Assembly (NCBI GenBank): GCA_027620445.1
Contig: JAQBYG010000002.1
Coordinates: 1,130 to 65,129, forward strand
Length of the DNA stretch: 64,000 nt
From: a bacterium
GTDB lineage: Bacteria; Patescibacteriota; Microgenomatia; UBA1400; PJMF01
Reading direction: 5' to 3'
Made by a program: the position numbers and the translations under genes
Notes under the pieces: generated by a model
Seen by the model: only the letters and a program-made list of their open reading frames with translations
Database searches by the model: none
What the model was told of the DNA's origin: nothing
Shown: piece by piece, positions 2,926 through 51,861 of the stretch
Layout: every line of letters starts with the position of its first letter
How positions within the stretch are numbered: the stretch's first letter is position 1

Positions 2926-4182
2926 ATGCATATTTCTCACATAACCGCGTACGAAATAATAGCTTCCGGAGGCTACCCAACTCTCGAGGTGGAACTCACT
3001 CTTTCTGATGGTAGTACGGGAGTGGCCTCAGTCCCTTATGGTGCTTCGGCAGGATCACACGAAGCGACAGTCTTGGTTGATGGCGACAAAAAACGCTACA
3101 ACGGAAACGGGATGCTGACAGCTATCGATCATGTGGATGAAATTCTCAAACCTGTTTTGACCCAGCAAACATTTACAACCCAAGCAGAGCTCGATAAAAC
3201 CATGATTGGCATCGATGGTACTACCAATAAAAAGAAACTTGGTGGCAACACAATTCTCGCAATCTCTCTCGCGTACGCCAAAGCAGTGGCGAGTAGTCGC
3301 AAGCAACCGCTCTATACCTATATTCTTGAAGAATTCAAGTTACCAACCGTCCGCACGCTACCAAAACCAATGCTCGTCACGATCGAGGGAGGCAAACATG
3401 CAGACAACTCAACTGATCTACAAGAGTTCTGTCTTTCGGCGATGGGAAGCAAACCAACCCACGAACAGATCCGGGCGACACTCGAAACATATCATCAGGT
3501 GAAAAAGATTTTGCATAGTGAAGGCCTATCAACAAATGTCGGCAACGAAGGCGCCTTTGCACCGAGCGGTTTGCCATCAAATGAGAAACCACTCGAATAC
3601 TTAGTTGCAGCGATCAAGCAAGCCGGTTACGAGCCAGGCAAGGACATCGGCATCTCAATCGATGCGGCAGCAAGCGAGTACTACATTGATAAGACATATC
3701 ATCTGAAATTGGAAAAAACGAGTTACGACTCAAAACAAATGGTTGAGTATTACCGACCTTGGCTCGAGAAATATCCAATTGTTAGCTTTGAAGATATGCT
3801 GGACGAGGATGACTGGGACAACTGGCCAGCTATGCAGAAGCTTTGCGCTGAGTTTACTGTGCCGCTCATCGGCGATGACCTCACGGTCACCAATACCAAA
3901 CGACTGCAAAAAGCTATCGAACTTTCTGCAGTATCTGGAGTACTCGTGAAGTTAAATCAAATCGGCACGCTCACCGAAACAATCGAGTGCTGCAAACTTG
4001 CACAAAAACATAATTTGATGATCGTACCGTCCCATCGAGGTGGGGGAGAAACAAACGACACCAGTATGGTCGACGTCGCAGTGGCAGTTGGGGCCTCGTA
4101 TATCAAAGTCGGACCCACGCGTGGCGAACGAGTCTCAAAATATAACCGGCTCCTGGAGATAGAACGGGAAGCAACAGCCTAA
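2926..4182 (+). CDS. eno: Enolase (phosphopyruvate hydratase), paralog 1 (divergent)
   Basis: Enolase motifs are present (ISIDAAASEYY, IGDDLTVTN, KLNQIGTLTET, SHRGGGETND, KYNRLLEIE). The sequence has atypical substitutions, for example HRGGGET instead of HRSGET and FEDML instead of IEDPF. Confidence 0.8.
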   Translation: MHISHITAYEIIASGGYPTLEVELTLSDGSTGVASVPYGASAGSHEATVLVDGDKKRYNGNGMLTAIDHVDEILKPVLTQQTFTTQAELDKTMIGIDGTTNKKKLGGNTILAISLAYAKAVASSRKQPLYTYILEEFKLPTVRTLPKPMLVTIEGGKHADNSTDLQEFCLSAMGSKPTHEQIRATLETYHQVKKILHSEGLSTNVGNEGAFAPSGLPSNEKPLEYLVAAIKQAGYEPGKDIGISIDAAASEYYIDKTYHLKLEKTSYDSKQMVEYYRPWLEKYPIVSFEDMLDEDDWDNWPAMQKLCAEFTVPLIGDDLTVTNTKRLQKAIELSAVSGVLVKLNQIGTLTETIECCKLAQKHNLMIVPSHRGGGETNDTSMVDVAVAVGASYIKVGPTRGERVSKYNRLLEIEREATA

Positions 4183-4739
4183 GCTCGAGAAAAATAACTC
4201 ATCGTCGCGGTGTCGATAATCAGCGAGTCACCAGTTTTGACAAAAAGTGGCGCGAGTAGAGAGTGGCCTGTTTCGAGCTCCACCATTTTGCGTGCCTGCC
4301 CAACAGTATTACCACCATCTGCATCTTCGGCGTGCGCGACGACAAGCGTCACTTTGTCTGGCAATCGTACTCCAATGGGTTTTTCGTCGAACATGAGAAT
4401 GTAGACAGATAATTCTTCCTTTAACAATTTGCGCTGCTCACCAACCAAATCCACTGGCACGGTCATTTGTTCAAACGTGCCCCCATCCATAAATACCAAC
4501 TCGTCACCATCTTGGTACAGATACTGCATCTGCTTACTAGATACCTCGACTTGCTCGACATTTTCTTGTGATTTGAAGGTAAAGTCGGTCGTCCCGGTTG
4601 CCAACACACTCTTGAGCTTTACGCGCATCAGAGCAGATCCTTTGCCCGGACTCATAAAATCTGTTTTAGTCACCTGATACGGAGCATTCTTAAAGAGAAT
4701 GTACATACCTTTGCGAATGTTGCCTGCTTTGATCGTCAT
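4179..4739 (-). CDS. efp: Elongation factor P
   Basis: EF-P N-terminal KOW motif with the conserved Lys in the PGKGSA loop; 186 aa; three-domain length. Confidence 0.85.
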   Translation of the reverse strand: MTIKAGNIRKGMYILFKNAPYQVTKTDFMSPGKGSALMRVKLKSVLATGTTDFTFKSQENVEQVEVSSKQMQYLYQDGDELVFMDGGTFEQMTVPVDLVGEQRKLLKEELSVYILMFDEKPIGVRLPDKVTLVVAHAEDADGGNTVGQARKMVELETGHSLLAPLFVKTGDSLIIDTATMSYFSRA

Positions 4740-21623: not shown

Positions 21624-23426
21624 TTACAATTTACAGTGTTGATATAACTTTCCATTTCGAAAGTGCCGTTTTTTATAGTATTCTTTTGTACCAATGGCTG
21701 AAATTACAGCCAGATTTTTGTATCCATGTTCAGTAGCAACTTTTTTTGCTTCTTCTAACAGCTCGCTGCCCAACCCAATGTGTTGAGATTTTCCAGTATT
21801 TTTCTCTCCCATAGAAACCAGCTGACCATACACATGTAGTTCGCGAATAACTGCTGAGCTGCCAAGCTCGGTAATAAAAGATGGGTCTTCTGGCAGAGAT
21901 AATCGCAAAAATGCGGCGATCTTGTTTTCCTTAGTAACATGCTGCATGAAGACTTCTATGCCAACACTCGTTTTATAGCACAACGTTTTCAGCACTACTT
22001 CTTCTCGTTTCACAGAATTTTCACGAATTTCACGAGCTCTAATGTCCGACTGGATTAAACTCTTTTCCTCAACAGAGCGTGTCGCAATTTCACGAAAGTT
22101 GGTTTTCTTGTTTCCCACCACAATATCCTGGGATGGGATGTCCCTGATTACCCGAGTCAGACGAGAGTACTCCGGGGTATGCGTGAGCGCGTGTGCAACT
22201 ACACTCAGGAGTTCGCTATCTGAGTAGGGCTTCCACAAACCTTGCTTGTGATACTTCGAAAGCTCCGCACTGCTTACGAGAGAACAAGGATACACCTTCA
22301 GTTCGTCAGGACAAAAATCTGGGTCTGAAAATAATTGATCAAAGTCTTCGATATCTTGCTCAACAGATGAACCATACAAATTTGCCATCCAGTGCGCGTG
22401 AATCTTGAACCCTGCTGAGCGGAGCAAACGAAATGCCCTGCGTGTTGCTGCGACATCGTGACCACGATTGTTTTTCTTCAGCACCGAGTCTTGCAGTGAC
22501 TGCACGCCAATTTGTGTCTTGGTACAACCAAGTCTGCGCACTCGAATTACCTCCTCCTCAGAGATTGAGTCTGGTCTCGTCTCGATTACCAAACCAACGT
22601 TTCTGATCTCTGCCGTTTCATTTAGTTTTTGTTCTCGTTCTAACTCTTCCCAGCTCGCTGTTTGGTATACATCGAATCCACCAATTTTCTCTGGGGCTAC
22701 ATAGAGTTCAGAGACGGTTTTGTTGTAGGACTTTTTCAGATCTGCCCCGTCGATCTCAAACTTTTTGAACTCCAATTTATTTTTCTTTGGATCAGAGCTC
22801 AGTGCAGTTCGTAACTTCGACTCTAAGTTTTTGTACTGCTCTAGGACTGCTGAGGATGTGTCCGTCCCAACAGAAAATTCATTGAGTGCGCGGAAACACT
22901 CTTTGATAAACCAAATCTGATACTGTTCTGGATAAAAAGACCAGGTTCCCCCCAAAATAATCAACTCCGCTTTGGAAACATCATGACCAATTGTTTTAAG
23001 AGCGGTTAGACGACTGTAGGTCTGTAAATACGGGTCAAAATAATTGCGTTCAGCTCGCTGTGCACCTGGCTCGTCTGCCAAGTAGCTCTTTGGCATACGC
23101 ACATCATTGGGACAAAAAATACACTTGCCTGGACAGGGAAATGGTTTCGTCAAAACAGTGATCGGAGCCACACCAGACATCGTGCGAGTCGGTTTTTTGA
23201 GCAACAGTGAAAACATGCTTTTTGAAGCCACCAACTCGTCATTGTCTATCAAGAAATGTTTGTAGCCCGCTAATATTTCTGACTGAGAAAATACTCCACC
23301 GTTCTGCTTTGTGAACTTTTTTTTGTACTTTTCAATTTGTAGCCTGTTGAGATTACTATCAGCAAGCAAAACCGCGAGTAATCGAGAAAGTTGCTCTGCT
23401 TCGCTGGTATACTGTGTTCCTGGCAT
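21624..23426 (-). CDS. Elp3-like radical-SAM / GNAT acetyltransferase (tRNA wobble-uridine carboxymethylation family)
   Basis: Radical-SAM Cys cluster (PFPCPGKCIFCPND), about 600 aa. The C-terminal GNAT fold (LGSELLEEAKKVATEHGYKNLAVISAIG) matches the Elp3 architecture. Confidence 0.65.
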   Translation of the reverse strand: MPGTQYTSEAEQLSRLLAVLLADSNLNRLQIEKYKKKFTKQNGGVFSQSEILAGYKHFLIDNDELVASKSMFSLLLKKPTRTMSGVAPITVLTKPFPCPGKCIFCPNDVRMPKSYLADEPGAQRAERNYFDPYLQTYSRLTALKTIGHDVSKAELIILGGTWSFYPEQYQIWFIKECFRALNEFSVGTDTSSAVLEQYKNLESKLRTALSSDPKKNKLEFKKFEIDGADLKKSYNKTVSELYVAPEKIGGFDVYQTASWEELEREQKLNETAEIRNVGLVIETRPDSISEEEVIRVRRLGCTKTQIGVQSLQDSVLKKNNRGHDVAATRRAFRLLRSAGFKIHAHWMANLYGSSVEQDIEDFDQLFSDPDFCPDELKVYPCSLVSSAELSKYHKQGLWKPYSDSELLSVVAHALTHTPEYSRLTRVIRDIPSQDIVVGNKKTNFREIATRSVEEKSLIQSDIRAREIRENSVKREEVVLKTLCYKTSVGIEVFMQHVTKENKIAAFLRLSLPEDPSFITELGSSAVIRELHVYGQLVSMGEKNTGKSQHIGLGSELLEEAKKVATEHGYKNLAVISAIGTKEYYKKRHFRNGKLYQHCKL

Positions 23427-35009: not shown

Positions 35010-36407
35010 ATGCCTACTCACTTTTTCAAACAATTGCAAAAAAACTGGTATGTAGTTTCACTCAGTCTTGCACTCATACTCATTTGTCTCACCCGAGTTT
35101 ATAAATTAGACGTATATCCCAGAGGTTTTTTTGTTGATGAGTCCTCGGTTGCATATAATGCACTCAGTATTGCGCTCACAGGAAAAGACGAGTACGGCAT
35201 TCCTTTTCCAGTCTACTTCAAAGCATTTGGTGAGTACAAAAACCCAATACTCATCTACTCCCAGGCACTCCTATACTCCTTTGTTCCTGCGACGATTTAC
35301 ACCGCACGACTCGCACCAGCTCTCTGGGGACTCGCTTTTATTATCCTAACCTGGATCTATACCAAAGGGGAGTCTACCAACCTACGACTGATCAAAACAA
35401 TACTAGTTGCTACCACCCCCTGGCTCTTTCATCTAAGTCGTGTGGACTTTGAAGTGATCGTCTTTCCCACGCTAGTGCTAGCAAGCTTGCTTCCTCTGAG
35501 ACGCTTCTTTTCAAAGCGCAAATCAAGAGACTGGCTTCTTTTTGTTCTAATCATTTCTATATCATTCTATAGCTATACCGCTGCACGATTGCTTGCACCA
35601 CTCATTCTCATTCTGGCTGGAGCAATCACCCTCTTGGCACAAAAGCGAGCAGCTCTCAAACCAATACTACTCGGAATAGTGCTCTCTATACTTATCATAA
35701 CTCCTGCAATAATTTGGAATTATTACTACCCTAATAGCTTGCTCGCTCGCTACGAACTCGTAGGCAAAAGTGATGCACCAATAGCAAGGCAACTCAAAAG
35801 TATTGTGTCAAGATATCGCGAGCACACAAGACTTTCATACCTCTTTGAGGTAGGGGACAATAACTTGCGCCACAGTACTGGCAAAGGTCTGTTGCCGCTG
35901 ATTTCTCTGCCATTATTTCTAATTGGACTAACCCAGTTCTGGCAGAAAAGAAAACATCCCTACAACTGGTTTATCTTGGGAGGTCTTTTACTCAGCCCAC
36001 TACCTGCAGCCATGACATGGGATGATGTTCCGCATGCATTGCGGTCAATTCTCTTTGTCGTTTTCTTTTTACTTGTCGTGTTTGCAGGGCTCGATTGGAC
36101 TATCAAACTGAAACAGGGAAAGCGTTGGTTGACTGTCACTACAATAATAATTTTTGCCGAGTTCTTCAGTTACTGGTCACAGTACCGAGCTGTGTATCAA
36201 ACAACCAACTATAAGTGGTTTTTTGTTGGAGATCTTGAAAAGATAACCGAACTGTATGAGCAAAAGCAAGACTTTGAAATTGAGGAGACGACATTCTTTG
36301 GCACGTATGCCACTGTAGCATTTATCTACCACTACCCACCCGAGTTATTTCAGCGAACAAAACAGGGACACAAAACAGAGCGAATTGAATTTATAGAAAA
36401 TAACTGA
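35010..36407 (+). CDS. GT-C glycosyltransferase, PMT/ArnT (GT39/GT83)-like, paralog C
   Basis: FFVDESSVAYN DE-motif; polytopic; 465 aa. Confidence 0.65.
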   Translation: MPTHFFKQLQKNWYVVSLSLALILICLTRVYKLDVYPRGFFVDESSVAYNALSIALTGKDEYGIPFPVYFKAFGEYKNPILIYSQALLYSFVPATIYTARLAPALWGLAFIILTWIYTKGESTNLRLIKTILVATTPWLFHLSRVDFEVIVFPTLVLASLLPLRRFFSKRKSRDWLLFVLIISISFYSYTAARLLAPLILILAGAITLLAQKRAALKPILLGIVLSILIITPAIIWNYYYPNSLLARYELVGKSDAPIARQLKSIVSRYREHTRLSYLFEVGDNNLRHSTGKGLLPLISLPLFLIGLTQFWQKRKHPYNWFILGGLLLSPLPAAMTWDDVPHALRSILFVVFFLLVVFAGLDWTIKLKQGKRWLTVTTIIIFAEFFSYWSQYRAVYQTTNYKWFFVGDLEKITELYEQKQDFEIEETTFFGTYATVAFIYHYPPELFQRTKQGHKTERIEFIENN

Positions 36408-36478
36408 GCGAGAAACGGGGTTCGAACCCGCGGCCTCTTCCTTGGCAAGGAAGCGCTCTACCACTGAGCTATTCTCGC
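36407..36478 (-). tRNA. tRNA-Gly (anticodon GCC)
   Basis: Acceptor GCGAGAA/UUCUCGC, anticodon loop UUGCCAA, T-loop UUCGAAC. Confidence 0.85.
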
Positions 36479-36695
36479 GCGTCGCTATTGTACAACGAGC
36501 TGGTGTATACTCAAAGTATGAGCATGAAATCATATCTTTCGTCGCCAGATTTTAACCGCAGAGCAGGCTATGCCGGGCAAGACACCGCCAAATTTTTGGG
36601 GAAAACGCTTGGGATAATCATCGCTGAAACTGCGAAATTTATAAAAGAACTTCTCATGAGCATGCTGGGCAAAAGGTAAGCACAAAGAAACTTTG

Positions 36696-36768
36696 TGCCA
36701 AGCTCAGGAATCGAACCTGAATTTCATGTTTTTCAGACATGCGCCGTGACCGACTTGGCTAGCTTGGC
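36696..36768 (-). tRNA. tRNA-Phe (anticodon GAA)
   Basis: Acceptor GCCAAGC/GCUUGGC, anticodon loop CUGAAAA, T-loop UUCGAUU. Confidence 0.8.
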
Positions 36769-36772
36769 ACTG

Positions 36773-36846
36773 TGGACGCTGAGGGATTCGAACCCCCGAC
36801 ACCCGCGATGTAAACGCGGTGCTCTAACCAGCTGAGCTAAGCGTCC
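36773..36846 (-). tRNA. tRNA-Val (anticodon UAC)
   Basis: Acceptor GGACGCU/AGCGUCC, anticodon loop UUUACAU, T-loop UUCGAAU. Confidence 0.85.
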
Positions 36847-36863
36847 GATTCTCTCATCGTCTG

Positions 36864-36944
36864 TGCCCGGGAGAGGACTTGAACCTCCACACCTTTCGGC
36901 ATACGCACCTCAAGCGTACGTGTATACCATTTCACCACCCGGGC
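36864..36944 (-). tRNA. tRNA-Leu (anticodon GAG)
   Basis: Acceptor GCCCGGG/CCCGGGC, anticodon loop UUGAGGU, long variable arm. Confidence 0.8.
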
Positions 36945-36967
36945 TCAAATAGCATTATATAACATTG

Positions 36968-37050
36968 TGCCGAAGAGAGGAGTCGAACCTCCATCCCGCA
37001 AGCGGGACACGCTCCTGAAGCGTGCGCGTCTACCATTCCGCCACTTCGGC
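36968..37050 (-). tRNA. tRNA-Leu (anticodon CAG)
   Basis: Acceptor GCCGAAG/CUUCGGC, anticodon loop UUCAGGA, long variable arm. Confidence 0.8.
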
Positions 37051-37075: not shown

Positions 37076-37774
37076 TTACTCGGAGAATTTTTGCTTGAAA
37101 GCCTCGATGATTATGTCTCGAGCTCGCGGGACCGTAAAATACGTTGTATTTATTGTCAAATCAAACACATTCCTGCGCCTATTGTCGGTCACAAAGTATT
37201 GTTTGACAAACTCCTCGCGCTCTGCCTCAACTTTTGCAATTGTTTCTTTTGCCTGCTGATTATTGAATCCCTCAAATTCCATTGCGCGACTCACGCGAAC
37301 AGAGTAGGGGGCGGTGACATTTACATGAAGCCCTTTTGCCTGGGGAGTGAAACTGTTGGCGCCTCTACCCAAAATGACAACATTGCCTTTACATGCGTGG
37401 GCAATAATAACCTTCATCATTTCAGAAATAAAAACCGTATCGCTCACGTACTCTACGTTCAGAACTGAGTGAACAATGTCATCAATGCGAGAACGACTTT
37501 TTTCGTCAAGTTCTTTAATAATTGCGCGTCGCTTTTTTGTGGAGTTTGCGATCTCGTCAATGATCTGTTGATCAATAAACTCAAAGTTAAGCTTCTTGGC
37601 AACCGCCATCGCAATCGGTTTGCCACCACTTCCCGGGTCGCGAGCGATGGTAATAAAGGGGCGAGGAAATGCGTCGTCTGTAGGAATGAGACCACTAATC
37701 TCTTTTTTGAGTTGAAATAAACGGAGTGCTTTATCGACCATTTGCGCGTACGATCGTGCCATGTTTCTCGCCAT
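37076..37774 (-). CDS. Cytidylate-kinase-like family P-loop protein
   Basis: ITIARDPGSGGKPIAMAVAKKLNFEFIDQQ matches the Cytidylate_kin2 (PF13189) signature. The ORF-track N-terminus (to 37987) runs through two tRNA genes, so the start was moved to the MARNMARS Met. Confidence 0.55.
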   Translation of the reverse strand: MARNMARSYAQMVDKALRLFQLKKEISGLIPTDDAFPRPFITIARDPGSGGKPIAMAVAKKLNFEFIDQQIIDEIANSTKKRRAIIKELDEKSRSRIDDIVHSVLNVEYVSDTVFISEMMKVIIAHACKGNVVILGRGANSFTPQAKGLHVNVTAPYSVRVSRAMEFEGFNNQQAKETIAKVEAEREEFVKQYFVTDNRRRNVFDLTINTTYFTVPRARDIIIEAFKQKFSE

Positions 37775-37833
37775 TATACTACTCGATCGTAGGATGTCAT
37801 CTGCAAGCTTCACGATGGTATAATTCAACGGCT

Positions 37834-37907
37834 GCACCCGTAGCTCAATTGGATAGAGCGTCTGTCTTCGGAACAGAAGGTTGTGAGTTCGATTCTCGCC
37901 GGGTGCA
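37834..37907 (+). tRNA. tRNA-Arg (anticodon UCG)
   Basis: Acceptor GCACCCG/CGGGUGC, anticodon loop CUUCGGA, T-loop UUCGAUU. Confidence 0.75.
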
Positions 37908-37912
37908 CACGT

Positions 37913-37986
37913 GGGCCAGTAGCTCAGTTGGTTAGAGCAATTGCCTCTTAAGCAATGTGTCCCGGGTTCGAGTCCCGGCTGGCTCA
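37913..37986 (+). tRNA. tRNA-Lys (anticodon CUU)
   Basis: Acceptor GGGCCAG/CUGGCUC, anticodon loop CUCUUAA, T-loop UUCGAGU. Confidence 0.8.
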
Positions 37987-37993
37987 CAAAAAT

Positions 37994-38710
37994 ATGCTAA
38001 ATAATATAAAATGGATATTGCTTTCTGTTCTGTACTTTATTTTCTCTTTCGCCGTTCTCATTACGAATTTCCTAACAATAGCATATGTTATTTTTGTGTT
38101 GGAAATTAATGTCGGCATACCGTTTTGGAATTACTTCCCCACAGCATTCTTTTTTGTGAATGGAGCAATCTTCTTAGCAATTGAGCTTGTTTATCTATTT
38201 TTATTACTACGCGTGCAGGTTGAGGCACAAAAGCATTCCGACATAATACTTAGTAAATTTGAGAAAGTACTTCCAATACTAATTTGGCCTTTTTTTGCTT
38301 GTTTGGTATTTTTTCTGGCAGAGACTTTTGATATACGAGACCTGAAACTGCTATTTTTAATTGGGTATATTTCTGTTTTTTTCACTCATATAACTATCAG
38401 GTACAAGGCAAAACAACTTAAAATATTGCTACTCGCAGGTATCTTAATCGTATCCTCAGAGCTGGTATATTGGTCAATTCGTCTAGCTACTTTCCCAGAA
38501 TGCAGAACCTCTTATGACGTTCCCATTCTGTCTGGGCAACACAGTGTTGAATGCAAAACTGCACCTCGTTTTAACCGAAAAACAATGGAGTTAGTTGTGG
38601 AACAAGTTGCTTCACTTCGCCAGTTACTCTATCCCGCTATAGTTTGTTTTGCATTGACTTTCCCACTAAAAAAAGCAAAAAAGAAGATGGTCGCTAACAA
38701 CCCGATCTAA
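37994..38710 (+). CDS. Hypothetical polytopic membrane protein (AT-rich)
   Basis: Several hydrophobic helices and no recognisable domain. Start moved to 37994 because the ORF-track start lies inside tRNA-Lys. Local GC about 33%. Confidence 0.35.
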   Translation: MLNNIKWILLSVLYFIFSFAVLITNFLTIAYVIFVLEINVGIPFWNYFPTAFFFVNGAIFLAIELVYLFLLLRVQVEAQKHSDIILSKFEKVLPILIWPFFACLVFFLAETFDIRDLKLLFLIGYISVFFTHITIRYKAKQLKILLLAGILIVSSELVYWSIRLATFPECRTSYDVPILSGQHSVECKTAPRFNRKTMELVVEQVASLRQLLYPAIVCFALTFPLKKAKKKMVANNPI

Positions 38711-38810
38711 AGCTTGTACTTTTCCATTATTCTTTGGTAAACTTCAAGAGAGTTTTCAAAATAGGAGTTCCACTTTTGGGACAGATGGCTCACAAAATCT
38801 GTACCTACCA

Positions 38811-39299
38811 TCAAGCTGACACAAATTTGAGTGTCTTGTGGCTTTTTTTGCAAGCATCCCAAGGATAGACCCTACCGCTCATTGCAATATAGACACCTTC
38901 TGTAAGAACATCTATGGCGCCAACCGCTGTCCCAAGATTAAACGCGGCATCTGAGTCGACATGAATAGCAGGCAACAGGGCGCCCGTCAAAACAATCACT
39001 TTCCCCTTAATCTTGTGTAATACGCTCGCGGTTGCAACCATCGTGTCTGTACCGTGCGTGATAATAATTTTCTTCTCTTTGGCACTAAGACAAGCCTCAT
39101 AGATGCGCTCTCTGTCCTGTGCTGTTATATCCAAGCTGTCTTTCTTCATCAGCTCAACCACTCTGTACCTGAAGTTCGGCTGGAACTTTTTTAGGTACTT
39201 GGTAACAGCGGGCTTTGAGATTTCGAACGAATAACTGGCCAAAACTTTGGGGTACTCTTTATCAATCGTGCCACCCGTTTGAATAAATAAGACTGACAT
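38811..39299 (-). CDS. Standalone L-asparaginase N-terminal-domain protein (GatD-like amidohydrolase module)
   Basis: Asparaginase motifs (IQTGGTIDK with the nucleophile Thr, IITHGTDTM, VIVLTGALLP, DSDAAFNLGTAV). Only 162 aa, so the asparaginase C-domain is absent. Confidence 0.65.
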   Translation of the reverse strand: MSVLFIQTGGTIDKEYPKVLASYSFEISKPAVTKYLKKFQPNFRYRVVELMKKDSLDITAQDRERIYEACLSAKEKKIIITHGTDTMVATASVLHKIKGKVIVLTGALLPAIHVDSDAAFNLGTAVGAIDVLTEGVYIAMSGRVYPWDACKKSHKTLKFVSA

Positions 39300-39304
39300 T
39301 TGCC

Positions 39305-39528
39305 TCTCCTTTCACAAAAAAACCCTTGTACTGCATCAAGCGAAACGCTCAATGACGTACAGGGGCTCATGAAATAAGAGCTGTGCCACCCTGCTTTAGA
39401 CTACTCAGATTCTCCAGCTACTGCCGACAAATCTTTCGTTCTGTTACGGGAACTTCCCGGAGAGTTCTACAATGAAAAATCATTTTCTTCTCTCGGCTCA
39501 ATTGTGTTAGCAATTTCATCGCCTGTTA
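39305..39528 (-). promoter_or_regulatory. T-box riboswitch leader (tRNA-sensing transcription antitermination element)
   Basis: The minus-strand leader contains AGCAGGGUGGCACAGCUC, matching the T-box consensus AGGGUGGNAC. It folds into an antiterminator: A1 helix CAGGG/CCCUG, 7-nt bulge UGGCACA, A2 hairpin GCUC-UUAUUUCAU-GAGC. The competing terminator is CCCCUGUAC-(25 nt)-GUACAAGGG followed by U7, then an AAAGGAGAGG RBS and the ATG. Confidence 0.6.
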
Positions 39529-39535
39529 AGGAGAG

Positions 39536-39563
39536 ATTCTAGCAGTGTATGCGGAGTTGTCAA
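39536..39563 (-). promoter_or_regulatory. Sigma-70-like promoter TTGACA-16 nt-TAGAAT driving the T-box leader
   Basis: Exact consensus -35 and near-consensus -10 on the minus strand, about 230 nt upstream of the asparaginase-domain ATG. Confidence 0.55.
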
Positions 39564-39628
39564 ATGGCTCGTAGACGCTATTCAGTGCAAGGGTCGTAGA
39601 AAGTGTGATTATGTAAAAAATAGTCAGA

Positions 39629-39910
39629 TTAACTAGCTGACGCTGCAACCTCTTCCTCTTGAGGAGGTGGCGCAACATCACCTGAGTCGGTCGAGTTCGT
39701 CTGAGCTAACCGTCTAAATTCAGCAATTTCAAGCATTAGCGGTGTATCAAGATCATCGTCTCTGTAATCTACAGCTTCTGGAGTTTGACCTGTCATATAC
39801 TTGGATCCTTTCAAGGATACTTGGATATTACGGCTGATTGTAGCATAGATGTGTATCTCGTCTACAAGATGCTCTACATTTTCAATAATCAAAAATGCGC
39901 CCACCATCAA
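39629..39910 (-). CDS. Hypothetical small acidic protein (93 aa)
   Basis: ORF only; it sits between the promoter above and the next gene. No domain recognised. Confidence 0.25.
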   Translation of the reverse strand: MMVGAFLIIENVEHLVDEIHIYATISRNIQVSLKGSKYMTGQTPEAVDYRDDDLDTPLMLEIAEFRRLAQTNSTDSGDVAPPPQEEEVAASAS

Positions 39911-39969
39911 CTTCTACATTGGCTTTGTGTACTTAGTCCGCGGGGTTAACGAAACAGTAACTCTCACCT

Positions 39970-40656
39970 TCAAAGATACGCCTGAGCCACCAACCGAATA
40001 ACCCCTCCCTCCACCAAGCCATACTCAGCTCGCCCAAACTCAAATCTACCGGTGTTGAGGTATTTACTCGCTCTCACATCGCGCTGTATATGGCTATGAC
40101 CACAAACTAATACTTGATTCTGCTCCATGTGGTTTTCCGCGTAGCGCTGCAGCACCACGTCATCATAGCTATCAGATCTTCGCAGATACCTTCGATATAT
40201 TTCTGAGAGCACCAGGATATTTTTGTCACGAACGTAACAAAGTGTACGGTAGGCTCGCCTAATAAAAGGACTTGAGTTTCTGAAAATAATGTCTGCATGA
40301 AAGAGCGGATTCTGAGTGTCAATGTGGTGGCCATGTCGGATGTCGAGTCTCTGATCTCCAACCTGGAGGAGATGAACCACTGCTTGCCGCACAGAAAACA
40401 GGTTGACTCGCTCGTCACAAAACTGCTCTGTATCATGATTGCCGTACAAATATATGGTCTGCTTTTGCAAAAGGAGCGGAAAGAGTGCAGACCACTTGGA
40501 ATTAAGAAATGACGAAAACGTGCAGTAGTAACCATCCCAAAAATCGCCATTGATGATGACTTGGTCTACAGAGCGGATCAGCTCTGCCAGTGCGTTAAAC
40601 CGTGCGGGTTCAAAAATTGGAGTTAGGTGCGTGTCGGAAAATATCAGCGTGCGCAT
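39970..40656 (-). CDS. Calcineurin-like metallophosphoesterase
   Basis: MRTLIFSDTH, GDFWD, GNHD and GHSH metal-binding motifs. Confidence 0.75.
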   Translation of the reverse strand: MRTLIFSDTHLTPIFEPARFNALAELIRSVDQVIINGDFWDGYYCTFSSFLNSKWSALFPLLLQKQTIYLYGNHDTEQFCDERVNLFSVRQAVVHLLQVGDQRLDIRHGHHIDTQNPLFHADIIFRNSSPFIRRAYRTLCYVRDKNILVLSEIYRRYLRRSDSYDDVVLQRYAENHMEQNQVLVCGHSHIQRDVRASKYLNTGRFEFGRAEYGLVEGGVIRLVAQAYL

Positions 40657-40672
40657 GGGAATAGTTTAGCAT

Positions 40673-41584
40673 TCATTGCGATTCATTCGGCCGGCGATGA
40701 TTCAAAAACATCAGCAGTGCGCCAGCTAGGATTCCTAAGGGTATGGTTACCTTGGCAATACTGCTTAGTTCAACAAAAGACTCCTCAGCAGCTTGACGCA
40801 CTTCGGGTTCGAGAGTAATCGGATAAGTTAGAGCTGCTGCGATCCGTGTCCGTTTTCGTATCTGATACAGATTTCCAAGGATGCCTAGAGCCCCTGTTAT
40901 AAATACCGTCGGCATTTCTATCCCAAGCATTTTAAGTCTTGGAAAGAGACCCCTAAAGAGATTCTCCAGCACTCTATATATCTGGGTGCCTGGAAATCCA
41001 AGCAAGTCTCCGGCTTGTTTTGCTTCTGCTTTTCCTTTTGACTTGATATGCGCATTAACAAGACTTGGACCTGGATCACTGAGGACTTGCAGCATATACA
41101 TTACAATAATAAAGAACAACTTATTCTTATTTTTTTCTTGAAAAAATTCACGAAGAACAACTCCAAATTGACTGAGGGAAATTGATTCTCTGTCTCGCCT
41201 AGTGTCTAGCTTCAGACCTTCGCTTTCATCTCTGGTAATTTCTCCCCGTTTGCAAGCTCGCGCTGCTGCTCCATCAAAGGTGTCAGCGCCAGCAATAGCT
41301 AACCCAAGTAGAAATAACAGACATCTCTGTTTATTTGTCAGATCTTTGTGCTGACGTGCATACTCAACCAAGCAGGCGTCAAATAAAACTTTGGCCGCAA
41401 ACCCCGCATTCGTAATATCGTTGGGAAAATTCTTTTTATCTGGGTAGATTATAAGCAACTGAGCAGCGGTGAGATTTGCTATCCAAGTGACGACTGAGAC
41501 AACAAAATCGAGCGCATTTTTTGCTGCATTTTTTTCTTTTTCACCCCCACCGCTTGGAGACTCAGCACGCTCTACCATCAGCAC
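40673..41584 (-). CDS. Polytopic membrane protein with partial CDP-alcohol phosphatidyltransferase motif
   Basis: Five or more hydrophobic helices. DTFDGAAAR fits the DxxDGxxAR signature, but the downstream G/D spacing is imperfect. Confidence 0.35.
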   Translation of the reverse strand: MLMVERAESPSGGGEKEKNAAKNALDFVVSVVTWIANLTAAQLLIIYPDKKNFPNDITNAGFAAKVLFDACLVEYARQHKDLTNKQRCLLFLLGLAIAGADTFDGAAARACKRGEITRDESEGLKLDTRRDRESISLSQFGVVLREFFQEKNKNKLFFIIVMYMLQVLSDPGPSLVNAHIKSKGKAEAKQAGDLLGFPGTQIYRVLENLFRGLFPRLKMLGIEMPTVFITGALGILGNLYQIRKRTRIAAALTYPITLEPEVRQAAEESFVELSSIAKVTIPLGILAGALLMFLNHRRPNESQ

Positions 41585-50565: not shown

Positions 50566-51861
50566 ATGCCAAATATTCAAGGAGTATACGCCAGAGAAAT
50601 ACTTGATTCCCGTGGATTACCGACGATTGAGTGCACCTTGTGGCTTGATACCGGTGGTATCGTTCTGACAAGTGTTCCTGCGGGCACATCTGTCGGCAAG
50701 TACGAAGCACACGAGCTCAGAGATAAAGACCCCAATCGCATGATCGGCATGGGAGTGCTCCAGGCGGTAAATAATATCAACACAATTATCGCACCACAAC
50801 TTGTCGGCAAAGACCCGACTCAGCAAGCAGAAATCGACCAGCTGCTCATCGCACTTGATGGCACACCAGATAAATCAAAACTAGGCGCCAATGCAATTCT
50901 CGCTGTCTCACAAGCTGTCTGCAAAGCTGGGGCTCTCACCAACAATGTTGCTTTGTACTACTACATTTTCAACAAGTTTCAGCTTGCACAAGAGCTCATC
51001 ATTCCGACAAATATTTTTACCGTCATAAACGGCGGCGAGCATGGAGCCGACAACCTTGATCTGCAAGAGTTTCAACTCTTGCCCGCAAGTCATATATCCT
51101 TCCCAGATTCGCTCAGTATGGCTGTCACGCTCTATCAAAAACTAGAAGAAGTACTGATTTTGAAAGGCGCTATTCACTCAGTTGGCCTTGTCGGTGGCTT
51201 CACCCCGAATCTGTACAGCAACAGCGATGTGTTCGATATCTTGGTAGAAACAATCAAGTCGAGTCAATACACGCTTGCCCAAGACCTGTTTTTTGGCATC
51301 GATGCCGCAGCTGACGAGTTTCACAGTGCTGGCAAGTACACCCTGCGGGACCGATCACAGCCCTACTCGAGCAATGAGCTTATTGAGTACTACAGAAAAA
51401 TTCGTAGCTTGTATAACGTGTTTTATGTTGAAGACCCCTTTTCAGATGATGATCTTGGTGCATGGGCAACGATAACAGAGTATCTTGGCGACACCACCAA
51501 AATTGTTGGAGATAGTTTGCTCGTGACAAGTCAGGAAAAAGTAAAGGAAGCCATCGAAAAAAAATACTGCAACACACTGCTGGTAAAACCAAATCAGGTA
51601 GGAACCATTACCGAAACAATCGCTGTTATCTCTCTTGCTCGTCAAGCAGGCTGGAGTATCGTTGTGTCACATCGTAGTGGTGAAACCAACGATGACTTTA
51701 TCGCAGACTTTGCAGTCGGGGTTGGCGCAGAGTACACCAAGTTCGGCCCGCCAAACAGAGGAGAGCGAACAGCCAAGTACAACCGCCTCTCGCAGATCCA
51801 CCAAGAGATCGAAATGTCTCGCCAACAACAGGCTGCCGCACCACAACAAGCTCAGTCATGA
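50566..51861 (+). CDS. eno: Enolase (phosphopyruvate hydratase), paralog 2
   Basis: Canonical enolase motifs (GIDAAADEFH, YVEDPFSDDD, VKPNQVGTITET, SHRSGETNDDFIADFAVG, KYNRLSQIHQE). Carries VGDSLLVTS where VGDDL is usual. Confidence 0.9.
   Translation: MPNIQGVYAREILDSRGLPTIECTLWLDTGGIVLTSVPAGTSVGKYEAHELRDKDPNRMIGMGVLQAVNNINTIIAPQLVGKDPTQQAEIDQLLIALDGTPDKSKLGANAILAVSQAVCKAGALTNNVALYYYIFNKFQLAQELIIPTNIFTVINGGEHGADNLDLQEFQLLPASHISFPDSLSMAVTLYQKLEEVLILKGAIHSVGLVGGFTPNLYSNSDVFDILVETIKSSQYTLAQDLFFGIDAAADEFHSAGKYTLRDRSQPYSSNELIEYYRKIRSLYNVFYVEDPFSDDDLGAWATITEYLGDTTKIVGDSLLVTSQEKVKEAIEKKYCNTLLVKPNQVGTITETIAVISLARQAGWSIVVSHRSGETNDDFIADFAVGVGAEYTKFGPPNRGERTAKYNRLSQIHQEIEMSRQQQAAAPQQAQS

Follow-up and report, generated by a model that had tools for sequence, protein, structure and literature searches.

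An atypical T-box leader with an ultrashort Stem I in front of a short-chain L-asparaginase gene of Candidatus Pacebacteria

What could regulate a gene for asparagine hydrolysis in a bacterium with a reduced genome, and could a tRNA be the signal? This question is raised by one locus in a stretch of 64,000 nucleotides from a member of the Patescibacteriota (contig JAQBYG010000002.1), called here the window, a term that always means the whole stretch analysed. On its minus strand, a promoter close to the consensus, a T-box leader and a strong terminator follow one another (39563..39316) ahead of a small asparaginase gene (38811..39299). The T-box leader in front of this gene had been noticed in a preliminary description of the same DNA, and this observation is confirmed. 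The element represents an atypical T-box subclass, in which an ultrashort Stem I goes together with an intrinsic terminator and a sensor pair that is G-C, and it escapes threshold-based annotation. The reading favoured here, to which a probability of about three in four can be given, is that a tRNA-sensing T-box of an unannotated subclass controls the transcription of a short-chain L-asparaginase in Pacebacteria, antitermination on uncharged tRNA serving the supply of aspartate. Within it, we infer the identity of the tRNA, the direction of regulation and the logic of an indirect charging pathway. The host belongs to a small-genome lineage, as had been supposed: the UvrA protein encoded in the window is 83-87% identical to proteins of Candidatus Pacebacteria, which are part of the Patescibacteria or Candidate Phyla Radiation (CPR).

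Does the leader have its own start signals? A sigma-70-type promoter (39536..39563; this and all the leader elements below are on the minus strand) associates a -35 box TTGACA (39563..39558), a 16-nt spacer and an extended -10 box, TG-C-TAGAAT (39541..39536). With 11 of the 12 consensus positions matched in addition to the TG of the extended -10 box, it is the top promoter-like site of a 3-kb scan (38000..41000). Transcription is predicted to start around 39529, about 7 nt past the TAGAAT box, which gives a leader of approximately 230 nt up to the AUG at 39299. The Shine-Dalgarno (SD) region, AAAGGAGAGG (39303..39312), ends 3 nt 5' of this AUG, its GGAG core lying 6 nt 5' of it; located 3' of the terminator, it is free of sequestration by the hairpin. 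The whole leader folds better than shuffled sequences (z = -3.7).

Is the element a T-box? A scan of the whole window with Rfam at gathering thresholds returned 12 tRNAs and nothing else. A permissive scan of 39200..39700 (501 nt) gave a single match, to the T-box family RF00230, which extends from 39528 to 39358 and covers model positions 1-219 with 29.8 bits and E = 7.3e-5. The kink-turn (K-turn), Stem II, Stem IIA and the T-box/antiterminator of the window all align to RF00230, the antiterminator part with high posterior probability. The search of this family, which had been proposed as a check, therefore gives an end-to-end match, but with a score far under the gathering score of 93, and this is why the whole-window scan missed the element. 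The low score is explained by the absence of about 73 model positions of Stem I, replaced by 3 nt; they include the distal platform (AG bulge and distal loop) that binds the tRNA elbow. The conserved 14-nt T-box sequence is AGGGUGGNACCGCG (PMC11297988). The window carries the T-box core AGGGUGGCAC at 39392..39383, and its T-box sequence, AGGGUGGCACAGCU at 39392..39379, matches 12 of the 14 positions, whereas the consensus of the class described below, AAGGUGGCACCGCG, matches 13.

Much of the preliminary description is borne out by these data. It had reported a leader of 230 nt with its own TTGACA-16-TAGAAT promoter, and a near-perfect T-box sequence, all of which were found again. However, it had called the element canonical, a label that has to be abandoned for a leader whose Stem I is devoid of its entire distal part and whose Rfam score is one third of the threshold.

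Is this leader specific to the window? The protein family to which the gene product belongs has 4165 matches, standalone asparaginase-domain proteins of about 162 aa. The contigs of the 12 closest homologues (about 58-68% identity) were examined through exact-protein look-ups, and nine of them, from related metagenomic contigs, carry a homologous leader (L085, L086, L087, L091, L098, L102, L103, L106 and L109, plus duplicate contigs), which makes a set of ten leaders with that of the window. The assembly of L103 is that of a Patescibacteria group bacterium. In these relatives, the T-box always lies directly 5' of the asparaginase gene. In six of the orthologous leaders, RF00230 gives 36-49 bits, all under the gathering score, and that of L087 has no match at E <= 0.1. 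Promoter-like sites with at least 10 of 12 matches, or extended -10 boxes, are found 3-9 nt 5' of Stem I in seven leaders; besides the window, the sites with at least 10 of 12 matches at this distance are those of L091, L098, L103 and L109. A covariance model (R1) built from eight leaders recovered two leaders absent from its training set, at 129 and 110 bits.

A motif screen and the custom model did not find the leader in 80 GTDB loci with family members of at most 57% identity (Proteobacteria, Bacteroidota, Verrucomicrobiota, archaea and one Saccharibacteria), nor did the custom model in L081-L084, L097, L101 and L105. A metagenome scan with the protein led to four loci, none carrying the leader. 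In the window, the custom model with filters off detects one copy only, and in the fetched loci no T-box of this class precedes genes for aspartyl-tRNA synthetase (AspRS), GluRS, AlaRS or LeuRS-like proteins. The matches of the GGTGGNAC motif screen near genes of the 80 GTDB loci were rejected, as they are T-G-G-T codons of coding sequence and not leaders. In the same way, a 9-mer of the T-box core, GGGTGGCAC, recurs in the coding sequence of the window (39276..39268, minus strand) as the catalytic T-G-G-T codons. As orthologues do not conserve it at the DNA level, this recurrence is considered a coincidence; these codons have the consequence that simple GGTGGNAC screens pick up asparaginase genes.

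Is the structure under selection? An explicit T-box structure was written on the window sequence and its pairs were counted. On a MAFFT alignment of eight leaders, 90.9% of the cells are standard pairs, versus 26-46% when partners are slid by 1-3 columns, and 28 of 43 pairs show compensatory changes; none of 500 shuffles reaches the observed values. The helices supported by this alignment are the base and the upper part of Stem I, the base of Stem II, the three pairs of Stem IIB, the outer helix of Stem III, A1 and A2. The MAFFT alignment of all ten leaders was set aside because L106, which has an insertion in A2, and L109 were misplaced. On the model-guided alignment used instead, which leans toward the modelled structure, 98% of the cells are paired, with compensatory changes in 21 of 31 pairs. 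Such compensatory changes, across proteins that share about 58-68% identity, indicate strong purifying selection on the structure and not decay.

Two of the orthologous loci deserve a remark. In L102, a tmRNA gene (4238-4642, 95.8 bits) lies directly 5' of the T-box leader, which starts at 4717. In L086 (510-1088), the start of the database protein P0003 (192 aa) was called within the T-box leader, while the true start is most likely an ATG around 577, past the terminator; this mis-annotation comes from the leader having gone unrecognised.

Which tRNA would such a leader read? Stem I, whose modelling had been left as a check by the preliminary description, is 29 nt long (39495..39523). It comprises a basal helix GGC/GCC, a K-turn (GA motif, 39520..39516 versus 39499..39498) formed by a GAU bulge and G-A opposite G-A, an upper helix AAUUG/CAAUU and a 6-nt terminal loop, CUAACA (39510..39505). 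All ten leaders share the length of 29 nt, an upper helix of 4-5 bp and a 6-nt loop. Basal and upper helices are 96-100% paired, with compensatory changes in seven of eight pairs, and the G-A/G-A of the K-turn is kept in nine of the ten leaders. The terminal loop contains the triplet AAC (Asn, 39506..39508); a purine, A at 39505, comes next, and the helix toward the K-turn begins immediately after it. From its position and context, this triplet is the probable specifier codon, which would be placed here in the terminal loop and not in an internal loop. At this place of the loop, eight leaders have AAC and two (L087 and L103) have GAC (Asp). Loops of the relatives (CAAACA, AUAACA, GUAACG, CUGACA, AUGACA) follow with that of the window the pattern NN-[A/G]AC-R, the first two bases varying freely and the remainder being the sole conserved part of the loop. 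The tRNA-Asn that had been proposed among other candidates agrees with this triplet. However, the AAC that had been looked for in GUAACAGAACGAAAGA (39448..39433) belongs to the Stem IIA/B pseudoknot and its linker, the specifier being instead at 39508..39506.

The central part of the leader retains the other hallmarks of the family. Stem II (39460..39494) consists of a basal helix GAGAG/CUCUC, 100% paired and compensatory in four of five pairs, a purine-rich internal region GAAGAA/AGUAGAA corresponding to the S-turn, and a variable distal hairpin. The internal region is invariant (G38, A40-A43 and U59-A62) and is aligned with GAA/AGUA in the Stem II consensus of Rfam. The distal helix was removed from the structure model, as it is 37% paired on the MAFFT alignment, where the variation of its length leaves it unsupported. 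The Stem IIA/B pseudoknot (39438..39459) includes Stem IIA, CGGG-AAGUU-CCCG (39459..39447), whose CGGG/CCCG helix is invariant across leaders, and Stem IIB, in which GUU (39453..39451) pairs with AAC (39440..39438). The three IIB pairs are 100% paired and all compensatory, GUU/AAC being replaced by GUG/CAC in L098 and by UGG/CCA in L102. Stem III (39407..39434) has an outer 5-bp helix (98% paired, four of five pairs compensatory), an internal loop and an inner hairpin, with invariant positions U101, C102 and G114-G116. The internal loop UGU/GAG (39429..39427 and 39414..39412) is invariant; it is flanked by the outer helix, which covaries, and by the inner hairpin, which is variable. To our knowledge, this loop does not correspond to any described T-box motif.

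How would the leader decide between termination and read-through? The antiterminator (39360..39393) associates helix A1, CAGGG/CCCUG (39393..39389 with 39364..39360), the 7-nt T-box bulge UGGCACA (39388..39382) and helix A2, GCUC/GAGC (39381..39378 with 39368..39365). The intrinsic terminator (39316..39365) has the arms CCCCUGUAC (39365..39357) and GUACAAGGG (39331..39323), followed by U7 (39322..39316). As had been claimed, the two structures are mutually exclusive because the 5' arm of the terminator takes the 3' strand of A1. The isolated antiterminator segment folds as A1-bulge-A2 with -9.8 kcal/mol, versus -24.8 kcal/mol for the terminator. Conservation of both structures in related leaders, on which the earlier claim had been made to depend, is observed: in all ten leaders a hairpin with a U-tract overlaps the 3' strand of A1, and A1 and A2 are 95-98% paired with three compensatory pairs each. 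All ten hairpins are GC-rich at their base and followed by 5-8 U. Terminators of -14 to -33 kcal/mol are opposed to antiterminators of -4 to -10 kcal/mol, the terminator being the stronger by 9-27 kcal/mol in every leader. A weak antiterminator combined with a strong terminator is a classic default-OFF design.

The bulge is informative about the tRNA. Its UGGC is complementary to a G73-CCA 3' end, and G73 is the discriminator of bacterial tRNA-Asn and tRNA-Asp. The earlier deduction of a tRNA with G73 from this bulge is therefore consistent with the specifier, UGGC being found in seven of the ten leaders and UGGU in three. The basal pair of A2 is G-C in all ten leaders (columns 193/214 of the model-guided alignment), whereas studied T-boxes have at this place a conserved G-U wobble, described as the main element that senses the aminoacyl group sterically (PMC7583486).

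What does the leader control? The gene product is a short-chain L-asparaginase (scASNase) of the RrA family with the full catalytic set, for which asparagine hydrolysis is predicted. This 162-aa protein matches PF00710 with 86 bits. Among solved structures it is closest to the 185-aa RrA chains (8UOO and relatives, E = 4e-27), two-domain asparaginases giving 3e-13 or worse. scASNases have 160-185 aa and share homology with class 1 asparaginases over the N-domain of the latter only; their prototype is RrA from Rhodospirillum rubrum, a cytoplasmic, free tetrameric enzyme whose Km is millimolar and whose glutaminase activity is lower than its asparaginase activity by a factor of at least 1000 (PMC10949315). 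The RrA residues described as catalytic (Thr16, Tyr21, Ser58, Thr87, Asp88 and Lys158) and the family-specific Lys19 (PMC10949315) align to T11, Y16, S55, T84, D85, K152 and K14 of the window protein. In 22 homologues, K14, Y16, S55, T84 and D85 do not vary, and T11 reaches at least 90% conservation. The window protein resembles RrA-type enzymes in its length and in these residues, including the family-specific lysine; it differs from them in that its gene is under a T-box, is linked to an AspRS gene in relatives and belongs to a CPR host. The list of phyla with scASNases comprises eight bacterial ones and includes neither CPR nor archaea, and no physiological role or regulation is given (PMC10949315). 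Short-chain asparaginases of CPR bacteria share 58-60% identity with those of DPANN archaea and Bathyarchaeia (P0019, P0084, P0118, P0120; L001, L105), which suggests exchange between ultrasmall bacteria and archaea; no T-box was found in the archaeal asparaginase loci fetched.

The neighbours of the gene in relatives point to its role. An AspRS gene lies 3' of the T-box-controlled asparaginase gene in L098, L102, L103 and L106; the proteins reach 487 bits with the aspartate--tRNA(Asn) ligase equivalog or 604 bits with the model of bacterial AspRS, that of L106 being identified by its Pfam architecture only. A YbaK-like tRNA_edit domain is likewise encoded downstream, by a gene of its own in L091, L102 and L109, and as part of the AspRS gene in L103 and L106. 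Partners of these two kinds suggest a function in the supply of aspartate for tRNA charging and not in the supply of ammonia.

Several of these neighbours are unusual in themselves. The AspRS of L103 (5543-7408) and L106 (808-2676) are 621-622 aa long and carry a C-terminal tRNA_edit fusion of the YbaK/ProX type. The stand-alone tRNA_edit genes, which encode 161-165 aa, follow the asparaginase or the AspRS gene (L102:6791-7288, L091:3469-3963, L109:10491-10976). This domain forms a distinct subfamily, as its YbaK_EbsC scores are 62-67 bits for a cut-off of 153. The bacterial-type AspRS of L098 (10839-12239, 466 aa) matches a 590-position model in two stretches, and its GAD insertion domain appears to be missing. 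L097 (3001-5276), a close relative that has no T-box, provides another association of the family with a synthetase, as its asparaginase gene adjoins a gene for an AlaRS-like protein (tRNA-synt_2c, 594 aa).

These elements can be assembled into a mechanism, deduced from sequence, in which the leader is predicted to bind a tRNA and to allow tRNA-dependent read-through. The nascent leader would form the 29-nt Stem I presenting AAC and the following purine, with no distal platform to grip the tRNA elbow. Stem II, with its S-turn, and the IIA/B pseudoknot would presumably dock on the codon-anticodon duplex, as in actinobacterial short-Stem-I ileS T-boxes. Were tRNA-Asn (anticodon GUU, G73) uncharged, its GCCA end could pair with the UGGC bulge, which would stabilise the weak antiterminator (about -10 kcal/mol) and let RNA polymerase enter the gene; with a charged tRNA, the stronger terminator (about -25 kcal/mol, U7) would form. 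In an amino-acid-scavenging host, tRNA-Asn would be aspartylated by a non-discriminating AspRS and then amidated, and uncharged tRNA-Asn and tRNA-Asp would both report a shortage of aspartate. The response would be the production of asparaginase (Asn -> Asp + NH3) and, in relatives sharing the operon, also of AspRS and of a YbaK-like deacylase. Induction of an asparaginase by uncharged tRNA-Asn would be sensible only if free asparagine is not directly usable for charging, which points to the indirect pathway. The interchange of AAC and GAC between orthologous leaders could be explained in the same way, as both tRNAs would report the same shortage.

How does this leader compare with known T-boxes? 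It shares with canonical RF00230 leaders such as those of Bacillus tyrS and glyQS the basal K-turn, a specifier followed by a purine, the GAA/AGUA S-turn of Stem II, Stem IIA/B and Stem III, as well as the T-box sequence, an A1 / 7-nt UGGN-ACC bulge / A2 architecture competing with a stronger terminator and its U-tract, and an own promoter. It differs from them by its 29-nt Stem I with a specifier in the terminal loop and without AG bulge, distal loop and elbow platform, by scores of 30-49 bits versus a gathering score of 93, by G-C and not G-U at the base of A2, by the invariant UGU/GAG loop of Stem III, by its Patescibacteria host and by its asparaginase target. Transcriptional T-boxes generally need a long Stem I, whereas an intermediate or "ultrashort" Stem I marks the translational ones (PMC7583486; see also PMC11297988). 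By its truncated Stem I without elbow platform and its retained Stem II and IIA/B, the element agrees with the definition of the actinobacterial class II (PMC7583486). In place of the SD sequestrator of this class, the window has a GC-rich hairpin followed by U7, and its SD lies free 7 nt farther on. The actinobacterial ileS T-boxes with an ultrashort Stem I (Sherwood et al. 2015; 6UFG, 6UFM; PMC7583486) act by SD sequestration and have an Ile specifier, whereas the window combines an intrinsic terminator with U7, an unsequestered SD, a specifier of the Asn/Asp class, an asparaginase target and a CPR host.

The physiological logic has a parallel in the Firmicutes. In Clostridium acetobutylicum, work by Saad and colleagues in 2012 is said to have described a T-box with an Asn specifier that acts on the indirect, tRNA-dependent asparagine pathway, in the context of a non-discriminating AspRS. 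The two systems would have in common the Asn specifier, the control of genes of the indirect route and an uncharged tRNA-Asn reporting a need for Asp-dependent charging. The clostridial leader is reportedly a Firmicute one with a long Stem I, and its operon includes AspRS, GatCAB and AsnB but no asparaginase.

Several observations weigh against the view of a tRNA-sensing, transcriptional switch for aspartate supply. The RF00230 score of the element is far under the gathering score, and its Stem I is without the distal platform generally required by transcriptional T-boxes (PMC7583486). The UGGU bulge of three leaders could pair with G73 by wobble only, and a G-C pair at the base of A2 in place of the G-U wobble means that charge discrimination may differ or be poorer. 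In the window, the asparaginase gene stands alone, the link to AspRS being made by orthology only, and its 21 large open reading frames (ORFs) scanned include neither asnS, aspS nor gatCAB, nor any other aminoacyl-tRNA synthetase gene. Genes for tRNA-Asn or tRNA-Asp were found neither in the window nor in 14 scanned loci of close relatives. If an asparaginyl-tRNA synthetase (AsnRS) were present, induction of asparaginase upon shortage of Asn-tRNA would be counter-productive and the physiological model would fail. A literature search for AsnRS or GatCAB in CPR bacteria returned nothing relevant.

The same facts leave room for other explanations, which have to be weighed together. The association of ultrashort Stem I with translational T-boxes so far (PMC7583486; PMC11297988) favours an element working mainly by sequestrator and anti-sequestrator, as in the actinobacterial short-Stem-I T-boxes, in which case the U-tract would be incidental. 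This is also suggested by five orthologues (L086, L087, L091, L098 and L109) in which the AUG is found 0-3 nt after the U-tract and the sole SD-like run (GAGGG or AAGGG) lies in the 3' arm of the hairpin, so that the hairpin would hide the ribosome-binding site too. However, the window, L085, L102 and L106 have a strong separate SD (AAAGGAG) 3' of the hairpin, out of its reach, and the GC-rich base followed by a U-tract in all ten leaders is the hallmark of intrinsic terminators. A mainly translational element is consequently judged unlikely, while a dual mode, with termination and sequestration, may be the likelier description for some orthologues (the five candidates above). The element could also be a decaying relic, or a switch sensing tRNA-Asn in an organism endowed with AsnRS, where asparaginase would release ammonia or nitrogen or remove inhibitory asparagine. 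Sensing could indeed be impaired by the G-C pair of A2 and by the lack of an elbow platform, but the compensatory changes indicate purifying selection on the structure and not decay, and both variants leave the co-transcription of AspRS and the Asn/Asp specifier swap unexplained, so that very little credence can be given to them.

The identity of the signal and that of the target may be questioned as well. The triplet A-C-[A/G] of the loop is as conserved as [A/G]-A-C, and ACA and ACG are synonymous Thr codons; a tRNA-Thr could then be read, or the short hairpin might hold no specifier and another tRNA be sensed. But a T-box specifier precedes a purine and then the K-turn helix, an arrangement that RAC-R alone fits, whereas ACR meets the C or U of the closing pair. 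Moreover, the sole variation of the first position, A/G, is the exact difference between Asn and Asp codons, the operon partners are an Asn-to-Asp enzyme and AspRS, and the UGGC bulge fits the G73 of tRNA-Asn and tRNA-Asp, while bacterial tRNA-Thr generally has A73. This alternative is therefore highly improbable. Concerning the target, the preliminary description had rightly recognised a protein limited to the asparaginase N-domain, and had proposed to see in it the module of GatD, that is, an ammonia-donating amidotransferase subunit, which the T-box would induce for the amidation of Asp-tRNA-Asn or Glu-tRNA-Gln. The N-domain fold is common to both proteins, weak matches to GatD models exist, the specifier is of the tRNA-Asn type, and the AspRS that adjoins the gene in relatives would make Asp-tRNA-Asn. 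Yet these matches are far under their cut-offs (NF003217, 45.9 bits for 310; TIGR02153, 37.1 for 324) and no better than the 50.6 bits obtained on a type I asparaginase model. GatD is a protein of about 420 aa that has an extra N-terminal domain and both asparaginase domains and works with GatE, in contrast to the 162 aa found here. No gene of the GatE/GatB family was detected in the fetched neighbourhoods with called genes, nor among the 21 large ORFs of the window. RrA, the nearest relative to have been characterised, works as a free tetramer and has negligible activity on glutamine, and the family is widespread without any T-box or synthetase context. The GatD part of the earlier proposal is thus not retained, and a GatD-like function appears quite improbable.

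The favoured reading, a T-box that terminates transcription ahead of an asparaginase for aspartate supply, can be extended. These leaders could represent a Patescibacteria-specific class of transcription-terminating T-boxes without elbow platform or G-U sensor, the asparaginase/AspRS/deacylase module channelling scavenged asparagine into Asp-tRNA-Asp and Asp-tRNA-Asn. In the strongest form of this proposal, the asparaginase would act on tRNA-bound substrates in physical association with AspRS or with the YbaK-like domain, and would so provide a minimal route for Asn-tRNA metabolism without GatCAB. Taken jointly, these extensions are speculative and rather unlikely as they stand; if true, they would mean that tRNA capture and charge sensing are solved here, kinetically and structurally, in a way unlike that of any studied T-box.

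Why does such a leader matter? A literature search found no report of T-boxes in Patescibacteria or CPR nor of T-box control of an asparaginase, in agreement with the preliminary description, which had called such control unusual. The leader reveals a blind spot of annotation, as its members score one third to one half of the Rfam threshold and the short-Stem-I model of TBDB was used only on Actinobacteria and on sequences already detected by RF00230 (PMC7778990). Patescibacteria are without amino-acid biosynthesis and their regulation is virtually unknown (PMC11665869); in this almost unexplored field, the leader offers a concrete conserved cis-regulator and possibly a tool for inducible expression. 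It also challenges a working rule on T-boxes, according to which transcription terminators need a long Stem I platform for fast tRNA capture, and an ultrashort Stem I without G-U sensor pair amounts to a natural experiment on the minimal requirements of tRNA sensing. For short-chain asparaginases, the locus would provide a first physiological context, the link to AspRS suggesting that aspartate is fed into tRNA charging in amino-acid auxotrophs. The Asn/Asp specifier swap could serve as an internal genomic signature of the indirect Asn-tRNA pathway.

Besides this locus, the window shows some other features. It encodes two full-length enolase paralogues, at 2926..4182 and 50566..51861 (both on the plus strand; 457 and 455 bits on the eno equivalog), a pair held within a single 64-kb stretch of a reduced genome. 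A bacterial Elp3 homologue, a radical SAM/GNAT enzyme of tRNA U34 modification, is encoded at 21624..23426 (minus strand, 479 bits). Five tRNA genes (Gly, Phe, Val, Leu and Leu) are clustered at 36406..37050 on the minus strand, and divergent Arg and Lys tRNA genes are found at 37834..37987 on the plus strand. The mechanical ORF 37076..37987 crosses these last two tRNA genes, the real gene being approximately 37076..37720 and encoding a cytidylate-kinase-like protein.

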